This document shows, piece after piece, positions 35,920 to 58,046 of a stretch of DNA of 64,000 bases (positions within the stretch are counted from its first letter, which is position 1; every line of letters starts with the position of its first letter). Below the pieces are notes generated by a model that worked only from the letters and a program-made list of their open reading frames with translations, was not told where the DNA came from and ran no database searches. The stretch lies in IMG/VR virus record IMGVR_UViG_3300014204_000113, positions 32,001 through 96,000 of that record; one strand, 5' to 3'. The stretch is from a virus (Duplodnaviria; Caudoviricetes). A program made the position numbers and the translations under genes.

Positions 35920-36900
35920 ATGAATAAAACCAACGTTATCAAAGTGTTAGACAGTATTTCACCTATTCTTTCAGAAGATTATGACATTATTCACTTTAAT
36001 CAAGATTCAATTTACGCTGAAAACAACATGATAGGAATTTCTTGCAATCTAGATTTTGGTTTTAAGGCTTCAATTAGAGGGATTGAATTAATAAAACTTC
36101 TTAAAAAGATGTCAGGCGATGAAGTAGAATTTAAACTTACAGATAAAACTTTATCAGTCAAAGGTGGTGGTTTATCAGCCAAGTTTAAGAAATACGACAA
36201 GGAAAAAATGCCGCCAGACTTTACTGAATTGGAATTTAAGGAAATTCCAGATAATTTTATTGAAGCAATAATTGCTTGTTTGCCATCTGTATCAGACAAA
36301 GATATTCAAGGAATTTTAACTGGATTACACATTGATAATGCTTTGATGTATGGTTGTAACAATGTTTCTGTGACTGAATACGAAATACCAGATATGGATG
36401 TAACATTTACTCTTCCAAAACAAACCGCTTCTTTGTTGACCAAATTTAATCCAAAATATTATCATATCACTGATAACAAAGCCATTTTTGCCAATGAAGA
36501 TAAAACTTCATTTCTATGGTCTGTGCTTATGGCTGGTGCTTATCCTGTAGAAAACATGGTAAAGTTATTGTCTAAAGAAGGTGATATTTTTTCTTTGCCA
36601 GAAGAAATAGGCAAAAGGGCAGATATTGTAAGTCTGTTTGCTTATGATGCTCAAGATGGAAGTTCATTTATTGAAGTGGATATACAAGCGGATAAGATTG
36701 TATTGGGCGGTAACAAGTCTTTTGGGAATTTAGAAGATGTAATGGAATATAAATCAGAAGGAAGCGTAAAATTTCATGTGAATTCAAGTGCTTTGGGAAG
36801 GGCATTGACAATAAATAATAAATTTGTTTGCTGTGGAAATTATTTGGTATTTGAGGATGATAAGATTCGACATCTAATTTGTTTGGTTGACCATAGTTGA
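35920..36900 (+). CDS. DNA polymerase III beta-clamp-like protein
   Basis: Size, S......LTG.H, G.YP pattern and context with DnaE and clamp loader. Confidence 0.7.
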   Translation: MNKTNVIKVLDSISPILSEDYDIIHFNQDSIYAENNMIGISCNLDFGFKASIRGIELIKLLKKMSGDEVEFKLTDKTLSVKGGGLSAKFKKYDKEKMPPDFTELEFKEIPDNFIEAIIACLPSVSDKDIQGILTGLHIDNALMYGCNNVSVTEYEIPDMDVTFTLPKQTASLLTKFNPKYYHITDNKAIFANEDKTSFLWSVLMAGAYPVENMVKLLSKEGDIFSLPEEIGKRADIVSLFAYDAQDGSSFIEVDIQADKIVLGGNKSFGNLEDVMEYKSEGSVKFHVNSSALGRALTINNKFVCCGNYLVFEDDKIRHLICLVDHS

Positions 36901-36926
36901 TAATATGGGAATATTTGATAAAATAT

Positions 36927-36994
36927 GGTGAGGTAAGGTAAGGTTTGGTACGGTTAGGTTGGGTGGGGTAAGGTAGGGTGTGGTATGGTAAGGG
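36927..36994 (+). repeat. GGT-NN pentamer array A (13 units), candidate guide RNA
   Basis: NN = GA AA AA TT AC TA TG GG AA AG GT AT AA; invariant GGT. Confidence 0.9.
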
Positions 36995-49494: not shown

Positions 49495-50586
49495 ATGCCA
49501 CCAAGAAAGAAAACAGATGATGTTGTAAATCAAATCAAAGAAGTTGCAAATAGTCCTGTGAGAAAAGATGATGAACGAGTTGAGTTTTTGAACAGTGGTT
49601 CAACTTTATTAAATTTAGCTGCTTCACAAAAAGGTAAAGATGGTGGATGGGCGCGAGGGAGAGTAATTAATTTGGTTGGTGATTCTAGTTCTGGGAAAAG
49701 CGCCCTTGCATTAGAAGTTTGTGCTCAAAGTCTTTACAATATTAAAAATATAGAATCTAAAATATATCCAAAACCTCAAAAGGTTTCAATAGTTTACAAC
49801 AATGTTGAAGGCGTAATGGATTTTCCAATTTCACAAATGTTCGGTGAGAAATTTAATAATGAAATCGAATGGATACAAACACCAACTTGTGAAGGTTTTG
49901 GTAAAGATTATCAACAAAGAGTCCGTAATTTAAAATCTGGAGAATTTCTTTTATATATTTTAGATTCAATTGATGCTTTAACAACAGAAGCTTCTTCAGA
50001 AAGAATGGATCAACTTTTAACCGATAAAAAAGTTGGTGGTTCTTATGGTTTAGAAAAACCAAAATTTTTTTCAAGTGAATTTTTCAATCATTTATGTGGA
50101 ATAATGAAAGGAAAAGATTCAACACTAGTTTGTATCAGTCAAGTTAGACAAAATATTGGCATAATGTTTGGGGAAAAACTTACAAGAACTGGTGGGAAAG
50201 CTCTAGATTTTTATGCACATCAAGTTTGTTGGTTGGCAACCATTGAAAAAATGAAGAAAACTTTTCGTAATCAAGATAGAATTTATGGAGTAAAAATAAG
50301 AGCACGTTTTAAAAAAAATAAAACAGCAATACCTTATAGAGAATGTGATTTTAGTATTATTTTCAATTTTGGAATTGATGATGTCAATTCAATGTTAGAT
50401 TTTTGTTTTGGTCCAAAAAGCAAGGAAATGACTTGGAATGACCAAGAAATGAAACGAGGAGATTTAGTAGAATTAATTGACAACTCAAAGGAGGATTATT
50501 TACTGCTACAAGAACTGACTGAAAAAATTTGGCATGAAATAGAGGAGGGAATAAAACCACGAAGAAAAAACAGGTTTATTGATTGA
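49495..50586 (+). CDS. recA: RecA/UvsX-like recombinase
   Basis: GDSSSGKS, LDSIDAL, ISQVRQNIG, TGGKALDFYA, KNK. Confidence 0.9.
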   Translation: MPPRKKTDDVVNQIKEVANSPVRKDDERVEFLNSGSTLLNLAASQKGKDGGWARGRVINLVGDSSSGKSALALEVCAQSLYNIKNIESKIYPKPQKVSIVYNNVEGVMDFPISQMFGEKFNNEIEWIQTPTCEGFGKDYQQRVRNLKSGEFLLYILDSIDALTTEASSERMDQLLTDKKVGGSYGLEKPKFFSSEFFNHLCGIMKGKDSTLVCISQVRQNIGIMFGEKLTRTGGKALDFYAHQVCWLATIEKMKKTFRNQDRIYGVKIRARFKKNKTAIPYRECDFSIIFNFGIDDVNSMLDFCFGPKSKEMTWNDQEMKRGDLVELIDNSKEDYLLLQELTEKIWHEIEEGIKPRRKNRFID

Positions 50587-50709
50587 GGTTAGGTTTGGTT
50601 AGGTGGGGTCCGGTAAGGTGAGGTAAGGTGAGGTGTGATGAGGTTGGGTAAGGTGGGGTGAGGTAAGGTATGGTAAGGTACGGTATGGTAGGCTAGGGTG
50701 AGGTATGGA
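50587..50709 (+). repeat. GGT-NN pentamer array B (24 units), candidate guide RNA
   Basis: Starts at the base after recA TGA; NN = TA TT TA GG CC AA GA AA GA GT GA TG AA GG GA AA AT AA AC AT AG AG GA AT. Confidence 0.92.
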
Positions 50710-51122: not shown

Positions 51123-51653
51123 ATGGAGAAACAAATCATGGAGTTGACAAGAATTAAAGTAACAGTTCATGGAACAAAACCTCTTTTGGTGCATCGTTTT
51201 GCGGAAGAAGAAAGCGGCAAATCCAGGAAGAAAGCAACTGAGGATTCAAAAACGCAGGCAGAAAAGGCTCTTTACACAAATGCAGATGGACCTTATGCAC
51301 CATCTTCTTGGTTTGAAGGAGCTATGGTTAAAGCCGGTGTAAATTTCTCGTTGCGCGGCAAGAAAACTTACAAAGATTTGGTTAAAAGTGCGGTTGTGGT
51401 GACACCAGAAGAAATTCCTCTACGCAACGAATGGGAAGTAGATTCTCGTCCTGTTGTGATTAGCGGCAGGATTATGCGCCATCGTCCTAAATTTAAAGAA
51501 TGGTCGGCAGAATTCACAGTTGAAATTACAGACCCGCAATTACCAGCAAATGTCTTGCAAGACATTTTGAAAGATGCAGGACAATATTGTGGCGTGGGTG
51601 ACTACAGACCCAAGTTTGGTACTTTTGAAATTGTTGAATTTAAAGAAATTTAA
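51123..51653 (+). CDS. Small RAMP/Cas7-like protein 1 associated with GGT-NN arrays
   Basis: IKVTVHGTKPLLVH (beta1), PSSWFEGAM, R.RP, C-terminal glycine loop GVGDYRPKFGTF; paralogue of 55107-55661. Confidence 0.7.
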   Translation: MEKQIMELTRIKVTVHGTKPLLVHRFAEEESGKSRKKATEDSKTQAEKALYTNADGPYAPSSWFEGAMVKAGVNFSLRGKKTYKDLVKSAVVVTPEEIPLRNEWEVDSRPVVISGRIMRHRPKFKEWSAEFTVEITDPQLPANVLQDILKDAGQYCGVGDYRPKFGTFEIVEFKEI

Positions 51654-51987: not shown

Positions 51988-52394
51988 TGCCAGAAGATGA
52001 CAACAAGAAATTTGAAACCATAGCGATTTCAGCGGATTTGATAGCTGAACAATTATTAATCGGTTTTGGAACTATGGATGTTGATGCAGCAAGCAGTTTG
52101 CAATTGGGAATGGTCAAGGCTTTGGCTGTGATGTGGGCAGCTTGTTCCAATGGTGATTCCAATGAAATATTTCATAAAATAATGGAAGCGATGCCGCCAT
52201 TAGCAAATTTAAAACAAGCAGGGTGGGTGCAATAATATGGATAAATTAAAAAAGATTTTTTCAGAAATTGAACCGAAAAAGATTCCTCCAATCCCAAAAC
52301 ACATAAGAAAAATATTGGATGATTATTCTGATATGGTGGACAACGCATTAAAGAAAGGTGAAGAATATAGAAAAAATTCAAAGGACAGATTCTA

Positions 52395-52934
52395 ATGGAT
52401 TACGAATATTATTTTTCGATGTGCGACAAAGTAGCGGAAAAAAGCAAATGTTTCAGTCGTAAAATTGGTGTTCTTGTAATGACACCAGACCTTAGTATTA
52501 TAAATACAGCGTATAATGGCCCAGCACGAAAAGTAAGTCATTGTGATAGTCAAGAACGATTACAATGGCTTGAAAAACAATTGAAAGATACCCATGTTGG
52601 AGCGGTAGATTTATATTTATTGGACAATGGCTATGGAACAAAGTGTCCTCGTCAAATATTAAAATTTAAAAGTGGAGAAGGATTACATCTATGTCAGGCT
52701 GCACATGCGGAAAGAAATGCAATTGCAAACTGCGCTAGAGAAGGAATAAAAACAAAAAATAACTGGATGTTGATGAATTGTAGCCTTCCTTGTCAAGAAT
52801 GTTCCAAAGGAATTATTGGTGCAGGTTTTTCAAAAATAATATGTGTTGAAGGTGATGATTATGACAAAGGAAGCCGGTGGATTTTAGATCAAGCTGGAAT
52901 TGAAATAGTTCAAATAAAAAGACAAAAAATATAA
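52395..52934 (+). CDS. dCMP deaminase
   Basis: SKC.SRKIG, YNGP, HAERNA, PCQEC. Confidence 0.9.
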   Translation: MDYEYYFSMCDKVAEKSKCFSRKIGVLVMTPDLSIINTAYNGPARKVSHCDSQERLQWLEKQLKDTHVGAVDLYLLDNGYGTKCPRQILKFKSGEGLHLCQAAHAERNAIANCAREGIKTKNNWMLMNCSLPCQECSKGIIGAGFSKIICVEGDDYDKGSRWILDQAGIEIVQIKRQKI

Positions 52935-53261
52935 AAAGAGAGGAATAAACAAATGAATTTTACGCCTGAAGAAATTAAAGAATTGGAAGAGGCGGTTGGT
53001 GTTTATCTTGAAATGGCCAAAGTTGTCAAACCAGTAGCAGAAGATATCGTTGATAGTATTTTGCAGTATGGACCTGTTTTAAGAAAATTGTTTGATGCCA
53101 TCATAGATTATCAAAACGAAAGAACCATTGCGACTATCAAACAATTTAAAGAAGCCGGTCTTGAACTTCACAACGATCAGATTCTTGCTTTGGTTCTTGG
53201 AAATAAAATGAGTTTTACTGACGTGTTGAAAAATATCAATTTTCAAAAATAAGGAGGAATA

Positions 53262-53690
53262 ATGAACATTTCCAAAGGCAGCAAATGGTATAAAATATTC
53301 ATGTGGTCATTGAGTATTTGTGAATCGTTTACTGGAAAACATTTATCATACAAATACCAAAATGGAACAAACCTTTGCCATATGATGCGAACCATATTTG
53401 TTTACATACCGTTGATCTTTTTGTCCCAGTTGTTGGTGTTGGGCGCGGCATTTTCGGTTTTAATTTACGTGCCGTTTAAATGGTTCGGAGCATTAACTTG
53501 GCTTGGTTTGATATTGGCAATAGTAGTTGGGTTTATTCTATTGTTTTCTCTTTTCATGGGTGGAGACAAACTTAAAAACAAGTTTGAAAGATGGTGTGAT
53601 GAAAAAGAACCAAGTCTTGTTTGGGAATGGATCAAAGCAAAGAAACATAAAATTTGTCCGTTGATCCAGTGGGAGAACAATCATGAGTAA
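53262..53690 (+). CDS. Membrane protein
   Basis: Two TM segments, C-terminal KAKKHKICP. Confidence 0.6.
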   Translation: MNISKGSKWYKIFMWSLSICESFTGKHLSYKYQNGTNLCHMMRTIFVYIPLIFLSQLLVLGAAFSVLIYVPFKWFGALTWLGLILAIVVGFILLFSLFMGGDKLKNKFERWCDEKEPSLVWEWIKAKKHKICPLIQWENNHE

Positions 53691-53996
53691 ATGGATAATG
53701 CCTCTTCCGGCTGTCGGAATCGCTCTCTTTGTAATCCCTTTTATCTTCGCGATTCAATTTGCTGTCCATCAAGATTATAAAATTTATGAAGGTCCGTGCT
53801 CATTTGTTGAATGGTCAACAGACAGTTTTAGATTGAAAATGAAGGTTAAATTTGACAATGGCAAAGAAGGAGAAACCTCTGACAAGAAAGCCTATCTACT
53901 TTTGGAAAAAGGTAAAACCATGATTGGTGAGTTGAAAATTTCTGGCGATGTTGATTTGAAAGAGCCTAAAGAAGAAAAGATTAAAGGATAATTAAT

Positions 53997-54437
53997 ATGC
54001 TACCAAGAAGCGGTTATCAACCAGAAGAAGAACTTGATTTGACGAATCCACCACAAGGTGATTCTGGTATTGATTGGCAAGAAATATTTTCCCAAACAGA
54101 AAAGAGGTCTCCTAAATTTTTTCAGATGTTGGTCAAGGCGGCTGACATCCACAATCGAAAAAACGCAAATTACGCAGGTTTGGGAAACGACCCGTTTGCC
54201 AATTTCAGAGAAGCGGAAAAATACGCTTGCCCTTCTTGCGGTGAAAAAATTCCAGCATGGCTCGGAGTAGCCATACGTATTTCGGACAAAACCAGTAGAA
54301 TCAACAACTTGCTTGGTGGTATTCCAGATATGGTTGGAGAAAGCCTTCTTGACACCTACACAGATTTAGGGGTTTATTCCAAAATTTTCTGCATTCTTTA
54401 CGAAGAATGGGAAGAGAAAAAGAAGAAAAAACTCTAA
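53997..54437 (+). CDS. DUF1599/Nmad-like (MazG-fold) protein
   Basis: RKNANYA..DPFANF, RISDK.SR, DT..DL..Y. Confidence 0.6.
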   Translation: MLPRSGYQPEEELDLTNPPQGDSGIDWQEIFSQTEKRSPKFFQMLVKAADIHNRKNANYAGLGNDPFANFREAEKYACPSCGEKIPAWLGVAIRISDKTSRINNLLGGIPDMVGESLLDTYTDLGVYSKIFCILYEEWEEKKKKKL

Positions 54438-54444
54438 AAATTTC

Positions 54445-54472
54445 TTGACAACCCGATTCTAAGGTTTATAAT
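54445..54472 (+). promoter_or_regulatory. sigma70-type promoter
   Basis: TTGACA-16-TATAAT. Confidence 0.65.
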
Positions 54473-54503
54473 AGAGGCAAATCTTTGAAGGAGGAACCTG
54501 AAA

Positions 54504-54758
54504 ATGAAAACCCTATTCCTGATTTTGCTTCTATGTCTGCTTGCAAGTCCCGCATGGCCCAGAGACCACAACAATTATGTAATCAGAGACAAGAATTATA
54601 CTGTCAAAAATTATGTCAAAGATGGAAAAATTTATGATAAGAATTACCGTCTTGAAGGTTACATAAGTCCTAATGGCACTATCAGAGATAGAAATTATAA
54701 AACTGAAGGTTATCTTGACAGGAATAGAAGTGGCGGTCGCAAAGGGCGAAACAAATGA
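54504..54758 (+). CDS. Small secreted protein with three I.DKNY...GY repeats
   Basis: Signal peptide; IRDKNYTVKNYV / IYDKNYRLEGYI / IRDRNYKTEGYL. Confidence 0.7.
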   Translation: MKTLFLILLLCLLASPAWPRDHNNYVIRDKNYTVKNYVKDGKIYDKNYRLEGYISPNGTIRDRNYKTEGYLDRNRSGGRKGRNK

Positions 54759-54928
54759 GAATTTCTGCTTACATTGTCATAATCGGTTTTGTCCTTGTAC
54801 TGGGTGGATGGATTTGGTTGGTGAATGATGTAGAATCCAAAAAACCAAGAGGTTTGAGTCCAAATCAGCAAGTAATGCTTGATAATGAAATATCAATCAA
54901 GAAAAAGATTTATGGTGATAGGAGATAA
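54755..54928 (+). CDS. Small membrane protein (57 aa, not in ORF track)
   Basis: MRISAYIVIIGFVLVLGGWIWLV...; ATGA overlap with upstream gene. Confidence 0.55.
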   Translation: MRISAYIVIIGFVLVLGGWIWLVNDVESKKPRGLSPNQQVMLDNEISIKKKIYGDRR

Positions 54929-54983
54929 ATTATGATTAATCTTTACATTACCAAATGCCATTAGAAGAGAATAAAAAGTTTAC

Positions 54984-55061
54984 AGCATGGTTAGGCGAGT
55001 CCGGGCGATGCTAGGTAGGGCATGGCCAGGCGGGTCTAGGTGTGGCAGGTTGTGGCGAGGA
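54984..55061 (+). repeat. GGY-NN pentamer array D (15 units)
   Basis: NN = AT TA GA CG GA TA AG AT CA GG TA GT AG GT GA; ends GGATTT. Confidence 0.88.
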
Positions 55062-55106
55062 TTTAAAAAACGAAAAATCTAACACAAATAAAAGGAGGAA
55101 CAACAA

Positions 55107-55661
55107 ATGAACTTGGTACTGTGTAAATACAAAATTACTGGCTTATTTCCACTTTTAACCCACAGTCCTGCTGGAATGAGGCAAGCGGCCAATGCGCCAA
55201 AAGTCAAGAAGATTCCATCGCCAGAAGATGAAGCACAAGCTGGTTTGTATATTGATAATGATGGAAATTATTGCATCCCGTCTATTGCTTTTCGTTCAGC
55301 TTTATTGAATGGATTGAAAGGGAAAAAGATTGGCAAGGTGGGTGCAATTTCAGTGTTTCAAGCTGCGGTTTTTAACGTGGACGAATTGAGTCCATTAGTT
55401 GACCCTGAAACTGGGCGAGCATTAAGGGAATATACGATCGACACTCGTAGAGCTATCGTGCAAAGACAAGGAATTTTAAGAAACCGTCCAAGATTTGAAA
55501 AATGGGGATGTAATGTTTTTCTTCAAATCGACTTGGAAATAACCACACCTGAGCAAGTAGAAGAAGCATTGAATACGGCTGGTCAAATCATTGGCGTGGG
55601 TGATTTCCGTATTGAAAAGAGAGGAATGTTCGGTAAGTTTCAAGCCGAATTGGTTGAATAA
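55107..55661 (+). CDS. Small RAMP/Cas7-like protein 2 associated with GGC-NN arrays
   Basis: KITGLFPLLTH, IPSIAFRSAL, RNRPRF, glycine loop GVGDFRIEKRGMFGKF. Confidence 0.7.
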   Translation: MNLVLCKYKITGLFPLLTHSPAGMRQAANAPKVKKIPSPEDEAQAGLYIDNDGNYCIPSIAFRSALLNGLKGKKIGKVGAISVFQAAVFNVDELSPLVDPETGRALREYTIDTRRAIVQRQGILRNRPRFEKWGCNVFLQIDLEITTPEQVEEALNTAGQIIGVGDFRIEKRGMFGKFQAELVE

Positions 55662-55679
55662 AAGATTTTAAAGATTTGT

Positions 55680-55749
55680 GGCAAGGCGAGGCTGGGCTAG
55701 GCGGGGCTAGGCGGGGCTAGGCGGGGCTAGGTATGTCAAGGCGAGGTTT
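55680..55749 (+). repeat. GGC-NN pentamer array E (13-14 units)
   Basis: NN = AA GA TG TA GG TA GG TA GG TA AT AA GA; internal (GGCTAGGCGG)x3. Confidence 0.88.
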
Positions 55750-55789
55750 GAAAAAGAAATTAAGAACAAGAAATATAATGATTTTTCGC

Positions 55790-55842
55790 GGCGGGGTGGG
55801 GCGATGCCCGGCCCGGCATGGTAAGGCAAGTTAAGGCGAGGG
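55790..55842 (+). repeat. GGY-NN pentamer array F (10 units)
   Basis: NN = GG GG GA CC CC AT AA AA AA GA; ends GGGTTTT. Confidence 0.85.
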
Positions 55843-55870
55843 TTTTCAAACAAAACAAAGGAGAATAAAT

Positions 55871-56548
55871 ATGCTAATCAAAGCAGCAGAATTGATTGAG
55901 GATTTCAGTTTATATCCACGTTCCCAAGTGGACACAACACATGTAAGAAATATTGCAGAAGCAATGATGGCAGGAGAAAAATTTCCGTCTATCATCATTG
56001 ATGAACAAAATAGGATTATTGATGGCTTCCATCGGAAAAGAGCTACATTGAGGGTTTTTGGAGATGAGGCTGATATTGAAGTAGAAGTTCGACAATATGT
56101 TAACGATAAAGAAAGATTTCTTGATGCTTTGAGATATAATTCAAGACACGGTAAGGGAATAACTGGAGTTGAACAGACAGGAGCTATTTTGAAGGCTCAA
56201 GGTTTCAAGATTGACCCTAAATTTATCGCTTCTGCTTTGGGAATCAGCCAAGAAAGAGTCAAAGAAATCGTGCAATGTAAAGTCGGGAACATTCGCCAAG
56301 GTACGACTGCTCATGGAGACCCAGTTCCTCTAAAACGCTCTATGCAGCATTTTGCTGGGAAAGAAATGACTGTTGAGCAAGTTAAGGTGAATGATATGGC
56401 TCCCGGCACGCCACAATCTCTTCTTATCAATCAACTTATCGGATTTATTGAAAGCGGTAGTTTACAACTGGAAAATGAAAAGATTGTTAATGGACTCATC
56501 CATTTGAAGGAACTTTTAAATGGATTGGTTTTGGAAAAAGCGGTTTGA
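55871..56548 (+). CDS. ParB/Srx-like domain protein
   Basis: YPR, FP.I.ID, IIDGFHR, N.RHG. Confidence 0.8.
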   Translation: MLIKAAELIEDFSLYPRSQVDTTHVRNIAEAMMAGEKFPSIIIDEQNRIIDGFHRKRATLRVFGDEADIEVEVRQYVNDKERFLDALRYNSRHGKGITGVEQTGAILKAQGFKIDPKFIASALGISQERVKEIVQCKVGNIRQGTTAHGDPVPLKRSMQHFAGKEMTVEQVKVNDMAPGTPQSLLINQLIGFIESGSLQLENEKIVNGLIHLKELLNGLVLEKAV

Positions 56549-56563
56549 AATAATTAAAGATTT

Positions 56564-56626
56564 GGCTCGGCTTGGTTGGGCGCGGCTAGGCTATGCGCGG
56601 CTTTGCGTGGCAGGGCAAGGCGTGGA
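56564..56626 (+). repeat. GGC-NN pentamer array G (12 units)
   Basis: NN = TC TT TG GC TA TA GC TT GT AG AA GT; ends GGATTT. Confidence 0.88.
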
Positions 56627-56723
56627 TTTATCATCACAAAGAACAAATTTGAATTAAGTGAAACAGGAGGAGGTAATTTATGATTAATCTTTACACGAGG
56701 TTGGCCTATGTTAGACGACCCGA

Positions 56724-57230
56724 GTGAGATGGACACTAAAGCTGACGGCCTTCTTATGGCTGATTTTAACAATAACCCTTTACCCGATGGCAACCTCCAG
56801 CCAACCTTTAAAAGAAACGACTATGTTGCCAACTCGGAAGTATCAAAAGCAGGAACCTTCAATTATTGTGATTAAGGCTTTGATTTGCGCTTCTGCAATT
56901 AAACATAAAGTTAAGCCAGAGGAATTAATGGCATTAGCTCACATTGAATCTCGCAAAGGTAAAAAAGAATTTCGTGTGGGATTAACTGGTAGATACTATT
57001 TGCCGATGGGTATATACAAAGGGTGTAAAACCGAAGATGACAAATCAACTTTAAGTGGCAATATTGAAATTGGAGCAAAAACATTGTCTAGACTTATCCA
57101 CAGAAGAGGAAGTCTAAAAAAGGCGCTTCAAAAATACAATGCCAGTTTCAATTCCAGTTATTGGAACGAAGTAAGAAGAGCATCCAAGAAATATAAACAT
57201 GAACTTAAACATGGATTTTTAACCCAATAA
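56724..57230 (+). CDS. Lytic transglycosylase (SLT-like) with N-terminal signal/TM
   Basis: ALAHIES, NIEIGA..L, ALQKYN. Confidence 0.65.
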   Translation: MRWTLKLTAFLWLILTITLYPMATSSQPLKETTMLPTRKYQKQEPSIIVIKALICASAIKHKVKPEELMALAHIESRKGKKEFRVGLTGRYYLPMGIYKGCKTEDDKSTLSGNIEIGAKTLSRLIHRRGSLKKALQKYNASFNSSYWNEVRRASKKYKHELKHGFLTQ

Positions 57231-57244
57231 AGGAGGAATAAGAA

Positions 57245-57559
57245 ATGAAGAAAATGGTTGAAGGTCTTTTGGTGGAAACTTTTCCCAACGAACAAATTAG
57301 GGCTTGGTGTACAAGAAGTCGTCTATGTGGTCAGGGATCGGATGGTAATTGTTTTGAATTTGACGACCCAGACAAAAGAAATTTATCTAAAAATACTAAA
57401 TCTTTAATAAAAGAACTTTGTTTTATCAATGGAATCAAAAAAGCGAGTTGTTGGCCTTATGAAATAAGAATTGAAAAGGCTAAAACCTATACTTGGGAAG
57501 AACTTGAACCAATCATCTTATATCTGATGGTTAAATATGAGGTTTATGCTGAGAGGTAG
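57245..57559 (+). CDS. Hypothetical protein, possible NifU/Nfu N-terminal-like fold
   Basis: ETFPN, L..I.GI, IEKA..WEELEP.I. Confidence 0.4.
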   Translation: MKKMVEGLLVETFPNEQIRAWCTRSRLCGQGSDGNCFEFDDPDKRNLSKNTKSLIKELCFINGIKKASCWPYEIRIEKAKTYTWEELEPIILYLMVKYEVYAER

Positions 57560-57565
57560 ATAAAA

Positions 57566-57652
57566 ATCGGTGTGGCGGAATGGTAAAGGCAATAGATTGC
57601 TAATCTATCTGGTGTCAAAGCCGCGAAGGTTCGAATCCTTCACTTACCACCA
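57566..57652 (+). tRNA. Degenerate tRNA-Ser(GCT)
   Basis: ATAGA-TTGCTAA-TCTAT anticodon arm, long variable arm, T arm and CCA; acceptor stem pairs poorly. Confidence 0.55.
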
Positions 57653-57663
57653 TTTTAAAATGT

Positions 57664-57739
57664 GGACTCGTAATTCAGTTGGTAGAAGCCTCAACTCATA
57701 ATTGAGTAGTCTCCCGTTCGAGCCGGGACGAGTCCACCA
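57664..57739 (+). tRNA. tRNA with CAT anticodon (elongator Met or Ile2)
   Basis: GGACTCG/CGAGTCC acceptor, CTCAA-CTCATAA-TTGAG, encoded CCA. Confidence 0.88.
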
Positions 57740-58046
57740 TAAATAAAAGGAGGTTTGATATGGGAGATAGGTATGAATTCAGTTTAAACTGCACAAGATG
57801 TTTATATAACAACCAAGTTTATTATGCGCCATCTTCTGGTTTCACTACATTTAAATGTGAGATGTGTGGACAATTTCATAGGATACAATTAGGATTTACT
57901 GCTATTCCTATAACCGAAGAAGAATATAATAATCCAATATGTGAGGAATAACTTATCTCGAATCTACATTTATTGGTTAAACAAAACCAACAAGAAGTTT
58001 TTAAATTTTGATTATGTTTAATGAAATTTAAAAAAGGAGAAATCTA

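Follow-up and report, generated by a model that had tools for sequence, protein, structure and literature searches.

A G+C-rich tract in the genome of an uncultured phage, placed between the gene of a 57-aa membrane-protein-like product and ORF 55107-55661, holds a series of five-base units (array D). The question raised by this locus is whether the array carries a readable message and, if so, against which sequence the message is directed. The tract is part of a window of 64,000 nucleotides, the whole stretch of DNA analysed here, which belongs to an uncultured phage record of 187,988 bp with 34% G+C. Arrays in the same five-base register occur at least 12 times in the whole genome, and seven of them are inside the window: those of the GGT class at 36925, 50585 and 51032, and those of the GGC class at 54987, 55678, 55788 and 56562. 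Comparison of positions 52000-58000 by blastn with 50,697 GenBank phages gave zero matches. The features of the locus are collected in Table 1, and coordinates without a prefix are those of the window.

Table 1. Features of the array D locus and of the first cassette
Feature	Position	Strand	Remarks
Array B, first cassette	50585..50704	+	GGT class; parallel case, versus recA
vipr1, 176-aa paralogue	51123..51653	+	30% identical to vipr2
Sigma-70-type consensus promoter, ahead of beta-flower operon	54445..54472	+	TTGACA, 16 nt, TATAAT; 12/12
84-aa beta-flower gene, resident allele of the predicted target gene	54504..54758	+	Pfam PF21785, E 1.6e-6, below gathering score
Resident site in beta-flower gene	54630..54674	+	sub-threshold: 7/15 dinucleotides, 20/30 nt, in frame
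57-aa membrane-protein-like gene, last before cassette	54755..54928	+	start overlaps beta-flower stop codon
Left 18-nt direct repeat, bounds cassette	54930..54947	+	TTATGATTAATCTTTACA
Array D, candidate vrRNA gene	54986..55061	+	15 YNNGG units, strict 5-nt register from C54986
vipr2, 184-aa Vipr (minimal RAMP/Cas7-like) protein	55107..55661	+	PDB 36pp_D, Foldseek, phrog_4652
Array E	55678..55747	+	GGC class, 14 units, low-complexity (TA GG)x4 core
Array F	55788..55842	+	GGC class, ~11 units
ParB-like protein, 225 aa, probable vap (accessory) gene in this VIPR clade	55871..56548	+	phrog_1033, E 1.7e-12
Array G	56562..56626	+	GGC class, ~13 units
Right 18-nt direct repeat copy	56678..56695	+	homology to cassette-free relatives resumes here

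Array D, Vipr2 and the published VIPR systems

Clean GGY triplets were found in 11 of the 15 units of array D, the exceptions being units 3, 5, 10 and 13 (GTC, TGC, GTC and GTT, respectively). The dinucleotides (NN) of the successive units read AT TA GA CG GA TA AG AT CA GG TA GT AG GT GA. Unit 15 (GA-GG, then TTT) is common to arrays D, E and F and to one homologous locus, and is therefore probably a constant 3' end and not part of the guide. The array ends 45 nt upstream of vipr2.

Vipr2 was aligned by phmmer with PDB 36pp_D, the Vipr protein of SUSP1, over residues 42-182 (E 6.1e-6), and the alignment takes in the C-terminal glycine-rich AG..GVGD[FW]R..FG.F loop. With the AF2 model of the protein (pLDDT 90.6) the top Foldseek matches were Csm3/Cas7, with a probability of 1.0 and a TM of about 0.5. 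Vipr2 is 30% identical to the product of vipr1 (ORF 51123-51653), both proteins belong to phrog_4652, and a third paralogue, vipr3, is located outside the window (genome 126572-127132). Like Cas7/Csm3 of class 1 CRISPR systems, Vipr2 has the RAMP fold with the glycine-rich loop and would use one protomer per RNA repeat period. Unlike in class 1 CRISPR, the period is 5 nt (three bases buried, two presented) and the period of reading along the target is 3, a repeat-spacer array is absent, and no other cas genes were seen beside vipr2.

The system is already known: VIPR has been described in 2026 preprints. It consists of a minimal RAMP protein (Vipr) and of vrRNAs built of alternating GGY and NN, with Escherichia phage SUSP1 and a Pseudomonas fulva prophage as the type II exemplars (bioRxiv 10.64898/2026.04.26.720920, 10.64898/2026.04.26.720927). 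[quoted passage not shown] A 0.8 identity criterion has also been used for targets (bioRxiv 10.64898/2026.10.15.759431). Natural targets have been identified mainly in two clades, and comprise satellites, regulators of prophages and further VIPR loci.

The present locus shares with VIPR a homologue of the SUSP1 Vipr protein, intergenic YNNGG arrays (9-24 units) flanking the gene, a wobble-aligned 1-nt skip, the lack of self matches of 80% or higher, and a phage-encoded two-gene core with what is probably an accessory gene. It is unlike the VIPR exemplars in that three vipr paralogues are spread across one phage genome, that the repeat flavour goes with the clade (GGC with vipr2, GGT with vipr1), and that the predicted target is a sibling-phage allele of the gene beside the guide. 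An initial annotation of this DNA had spoken of an 'NNx codon register' and of a 'RAMP paralogue'. The RAMP assignment of Vipr2 stood, on the evidence of its fold and its identity to vipr1, and was refined to a Vipr protein, i.e. a member of a known family; since Vipr2 matches the SUSP1 Vipr and the register matches the VIPR rule, the two terms correspond to the published code and protein.

Resident and rival alleles of the beta-flower gene

The 84-aa product of the gene upstream of the cassette consists of a signal-peptide-like N-terminal segment followed by beta-flower repeats, three of which are similar to each other. It would be a small secreted protein. The codons at 54630-54674 are ATT TAT GAT AAG AAT TAC CGT CTT GAA GGT TAC ATA AGT CCT AAT, with CGT as the Arg codon where array D has AG, and rival alleles have their predicted target site at the homologous position. 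When array D was scored in the NNx register along both strands of the 187,988-bp genome (~376,000 positions), this site ranked first, and only one position elsewhere had 7 of the array D dinucleotides. The probability of finding the best match within 500 nt of the array was p = 0.0097. Among 1000 shuffles of the unit order, a match of 20 nt or more within 1 kb was reached in 0.6%, and one of 7 or more dinucleotides in 4.7%. By itself the resident match is thus modestly above chance, suggestive rather than decisive, and no self-target of 80% or higher was found for array D on either strand of the genome, the best self match being this one.

More informative were the rival alleles. In a search of 5.8 billion proteins, the close homologues of the beta-flower protein formed seven clusters with 14 sequences, which were aligned, and the DNA of the homologues, together with further loci, was scored against array D by the NNx register. 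The best match was found in L006, a 7.7-kb IMG/VR contig, whose positions 2276-2320 encode, in frame with the gene, the peptide IYDRDYRIQGYVSPN and agree with the array in 12/15 dinucleotides and 26/30 nt. L013 and L014 (peptide IYDRDYRIKGYVSPN; positions 2350-2394 in L013) followed with 11/15 and 25/30. The resident allele, which is present also in L015 and L016 (peptide IYDKNYRLEGYISPN), scored 7/15 and 20/30, and seven further loci with various peptides (L001-L005, L009 and L017) scored 7-8/15 and 19-22/30. The Arg codon is AGG in L013 and L014, as in the AG of the array, and CGA in L006. Another allele, P0006, reads IYDRDYRIRGY and is expected to match in 8-10/15 dinucleotides, a range estimated from the protein only.

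L006 and the resident allele differ in five dinucleotides (resident K, N, L, E and I; L006 R, D, I, Q and V, respectively), and at all five the array agrees with L006. At the peptide level the rival IYDRDYRIQGYVS is separated from the resident IYDKNYRLEGYIS by five conservative amino-acid changes; such changes are the only kind of escape allowed, because the code ignores wobble bases. Over the first 13 residues the L006 peptide is the same as the peptide decoded from array D. None of the 1000 unit-order shuffles reached 12 dinucleotides in L006, the maximum being 9. Units 14-15 of the array (GT GA) were matched by none of the known alleles, and if unit 15 is left out, the L006 score becomes 12/14. 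The match in L006 reaches the 80% NN and 0.8 identity levels of the VIPR preprints, its 12/15 lying exactly at the published dinucleotide threshold, which was calibrated on type II systems and not on this clade. The non-self L006 allele at 12/15 is the main support for targeting by array D, and this support is strong.

The agreement is specific for the register. A match was obtained with the 1-nt skip alone (26/30 for L006, 25/30 for L013), whereas skips of 0, 2 and 3 nt, the reversed unit order and the complemented dinucleotides all gave 17-21/30. The match is also rare: the exact 15-unit NNx pattern had no matches in IMG/VR, and a relaxed 13-unit pattern with MG at both Arg units retrieved one contig, that of L006, among the 2.9 million of IMG/VR and none in 185,579 prokaryote genomes.

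What the initial annotation had claimed about this site was borne out. Its dinucleotide string and its resident match at 54630-54674, including the Arg codon kept as AGn versus CGn, were reproduced. The codon register that it had proposed is the only one that gives a match, and is the published VIPR rule. It had also held that the array copies a non-self allele and not a decayed self copy, a view now upheld by L006, and that the idea would fall if no homologue were closer to the decoded peptide than the resident allele; such a homologue was found. The search that it had suggested in related phages succeeded with the 13-unit form and returned nothing with the 15-unit form, and the genomes with matching alleles, which it had supposed might lack the cassette, do lack it, as do the other relatives spanning the junction (see below).

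The cassette and arrays elsewhere in the genome

Array D, vipr2, arrays E and F, the ParB-like gene and array G together form a cassette of 1.75 kb (cassette 2), inserted between the 57-aa gene and an SLT-like gene. In L006 the SLT-like gene directly follows the 57-aa gene, and the block from array D to array G is absent. All nine junction-spanning relatives, L006 and L013/L014 included, are cassette-free: homology is lost at 54945-54948 and regained at 56660-56675, and the flanks are 84-98% identical. The predicted target is ~255-300 bp from the insertion point, and the guide is ~310 nt from the resident allele. As the resident allele is also present in the cassette-free L015, it is a natural allele and not the result of recoding after the insertion.

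No Vipr2-related loci were found in IMG/VR, and 70 homologues of Vipr2 were present in a large protein collection. Homologues 65-78% identical to Vipr2 occur in different phage contexts (behind dnaB/rusA, behind recT and elsewhere), always with a ParB-like gene (227-228 aa) and three GGC-type arrays that share the scaffold but not the NN. The succession of an array, vipr2, another array, the ParB-like gene (225-228 aa) and a further array is conserved between 55107-56626 of the window, L032:3892-5430, L038:512-2058 and L039:3921-5377, and the vipr2/ParB-like pairing was seen in at least three unrelated contexts (L032/L033, L038 and L039/L040). The conserved order in varied contexts indicates a portable module and makes the ParB-like protein a candidate accessory (vap) gene. 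The candidate accessory gene is of the ParB type in cassette 2, and in cassette 1 it is DUF559/Vsr-like.

The pyrimidine of GGY was found to follow the Vipr clade: it is GGC beside vipr2 and its homologues (L032, L038, L039), and GGT beside vipr1, both here and in L002:224-1386. Judged from these scaffolds, the clade linkage suggests that repeat recognition may be paralogue-specific and possibly orthogonal within one genome. The GGC-class arrays share only a short end, GGC-GAGG-TTT. Array ends in this genome appear to consist of a short constant motif or of repeat-like units, in contrast to the long pseudoknotted tail of the SUSP1 clade. A target of array E would encode a Tyr-Gly-type repeat. 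For arrays C, E, F, G, I and K no target was found in the fetched loci or in the sister genome G001.

A parallel case is provided by array B of the first cassette (cassette 1). Its first 19 units match the C-terminus of recA in 16/19 dinucleotides in L001, which has no cassette behind recA, versus 10/19 in the resident recA. The last 5-6 repeat-like units of array B (AC/AT/AG/AG/GA, then ATGGATTTTG) are shared with an otherwise different array of L002 (50680-50709 and L002:279-310); these units probably form a constant 3' tail of degenerate repeats, which would explain why the last five match no target. Relative to L001, cassette 1 had diffuse boundaries without a recognisable direct repeat. 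Between arrays B and C there is a 104-aa gene of the DUF559/Vsr-like endonuclease fold (PF04480, 50712-51026), which is kept in L002 and is a candidate nuclease partner of vipr1.

The sister genome G001 was rebuilt complete (189,632 bp, 10 arrays). It is without the regions that carry vipr1, vipr2 and vipr3 here, and its own Vipr candidate is very distant (G001:155055-155645, 22% identity to vipr1, E 0.009). The genome-wide best match was within 500 nt, in the adjacent coding sequence, for 4 of the 12 arrays of this genome and for 4 of the 10 of G001, an enrichment of the flanks with Fisher p values of 1e-4 and 2e-6, respectively, which are not independent, because some arrays are common to both genomes. 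Array A (36925-36994) matches the C-terminus of the G001 homologue of the upstream gene 35920-36900 in 22/28 nt, and the G001 array in its place (G001:136735, 136843) agrees with the allele of this genome in 24/32 and with its own in 21/32; array A and its counterpart each fit the allele of the other genome better than their own. With 28/32 nt and 13/16 dinucleotides, the match of the array at G001:1114 to a coding sequence at genome 117931 (window coordinate 85931, outside the window) exceeds the published target threshold; within G001 this array reaches no more than 20/32. Among the vipr2-type loci L032, L033, L038, L039 and L040 (arrays of 9-16 units) no flank-directed signal was detected above background, and the flank-directed rule is therefore not universal.

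Possible roles of array D

We consider it probable that array D is a VIPR guide-RNA (vrRNA) gene directed against the rival beta-flower allele, most likely interfering with a co-infecting sibling phage. The array would be transcribed, possibly by read-through from the promoter at 54445-54472, a route to be considered because a promoter of its own was looked for and not found, and the transcript would presumably be processed. By analogy with SUSP1, Vipr2 protomers would coat the RNA, one per pentamer, with GGY buried and NN presented, and the resulting ribonucleoprotein filament would read double-stranded DNA as NNx, the skipped base corresponding here to the wobble position of the codon. The promoter is conserved in L006, which places the target site ~185 nt into the rival transcription unit. 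The filament, pairing at 12 of the 15 units, may bind the rival allele at this distance downstream of the strong promoter of the operon comprising the beta-flower, 57-aa and SLT-like genes, and would then block transcription of the rival operon; silencing of this kind could have an effect on fitness. The resident allele would be spared, as its score is far below the binding threshold. Since most of the cassette-free relatives (L001, L002-L004, G001 and L015) match no better than the resident allele, the guide would reach only some of the rivals.

Other vrRNAs directed against close relatives have been described: solo and VIPR-borne vrRNAs target the vipr genes or vrRNAs of relatives, with a self match lower than the non-self match (bioRxiv 10.64898/2026.10.15.759431). 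Array D resembles them in being aimed, as we predict, at close relatives of its carrier, in having few informative self/non-self positions and in its wobble alignment. They hit VIPR machinery or satellites, whereas the predicted target here is an ordinary cargo gene that adjoins the cassette. In the VIPR literature searched, we found no guide placed next to the resistant allele of its own genome, nor any mention of flank-directed, allele or homing targeting.

Alternatively, array D could be a relic of the birth of a guide: a local copy of the L006-like flank of a former carrier, brought beside another allele when the cassette later recombined, so that the match would reflect ancestry and not a target. 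Such copying would predict the best match in the adjacent gene, as is seen for roughly one in three arrays of the two genomes, and the VIPR literature searched holds no account of how vrRNAs arise. A full copy of its own flank would, however, be self-targeting by the published rule, and the surveys found no self matches of 80% or higher; moreover, the preference of array A and its G001 counterpart for each other's alleles fits selection for non-self recognition and not passive copying. We regard this origin as unlikely to account for the match.

Much less probable is a cis-regulatory role, in which weak binding of the resident beta-flower gene by the array RNA and Vipr2 would tune their own operon and the match in L006 would be incidental. 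The best self match is indeed in the adjacent gene, which belongs to the same operon and follows a strong promoter, but 7/15 is far below the level of specific VIPR binding in print, and the five mismatches are those that separate the resident from the L006 allele, whereas selection for self-binding would have removed such mismatches. A mere resemblance between the NN set (TA, GA, AT, GG) and a Tyr/Asp/Gly-rich protein with three similar repeats, to which the local shuffles with 7 dinucleotides might point, is hardly credible, since 12/15 was never reached by shuffling, the match depends on the register and has no second instance in IMG/VR, and array B versus recA is an independent replicate.

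With array D read as a guide against the rival allele, this uncultured jumbo-size phage offers a clean natural example of VIPR, a system only months old in the literature, in which the guide, the resistant allele, the sensitive rival allele and the empty site are all identified, and the same pattern is seen again at recA and at further loci of this genome and its sister genome. The two Vipr clades with their GGC and GGT scaffolds suggest orthogonal systems that could serve multiplexed programmable silencing.

T-even phages carry free-standing homing endonuclease cassettes (seg/mob), which show presence/absence polymorphism between conserved genes; their recognition site is in the flanking gene of the cassette-free rival, a few hundred bp from the empty site, and the carrier's own flanking allele is resistant. 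Cassette 2 is like these in its exact presence/absence at one site, in the predicted site near the empty junction and in the scores of the L006 and resident alleles (12/15 versus 7/15). It is unlike them in that recognition would be RNA-guided and a proven nuclease is absent from it. A bolder and tentative proposal, to which we give clearly less credence than to the guide role itself, is that the VIPR cassettes of this phage lineage are RNA-guided allele-exclusion or homing elements, with a guide against the rival flank allele and a resistant resident allele, and that the flank bias is a general design rule of VIPR. The rival DNA would be bound 250-300 bp from the empty site and, with the ParB-like or the DUF559/Vsr-like partner taking part, stalled or broken, and recombination would then spread both the cassette and the resistant allele. 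The proposal fits the geometry. ParB-like domains include nucleases as well as clamps, and a nuclease role of the cassette 2 partner would be hypothetical. In L015 the resistant allele occurs without the cassette. If general, the flank-directed arrangement would tie RNA-guided silencing to the spread of selfish cassettes among sibling phages, and the flank bias may hint at the origin of new guides.

At the arrays the Rfam gathering scan of the window revealed no ribozyme or known RNA. The scan detected five tRNAs alone, whose genes are scattered in the window (8773, 28334, 46356, 57569 and 57664), as is usual for large phages.
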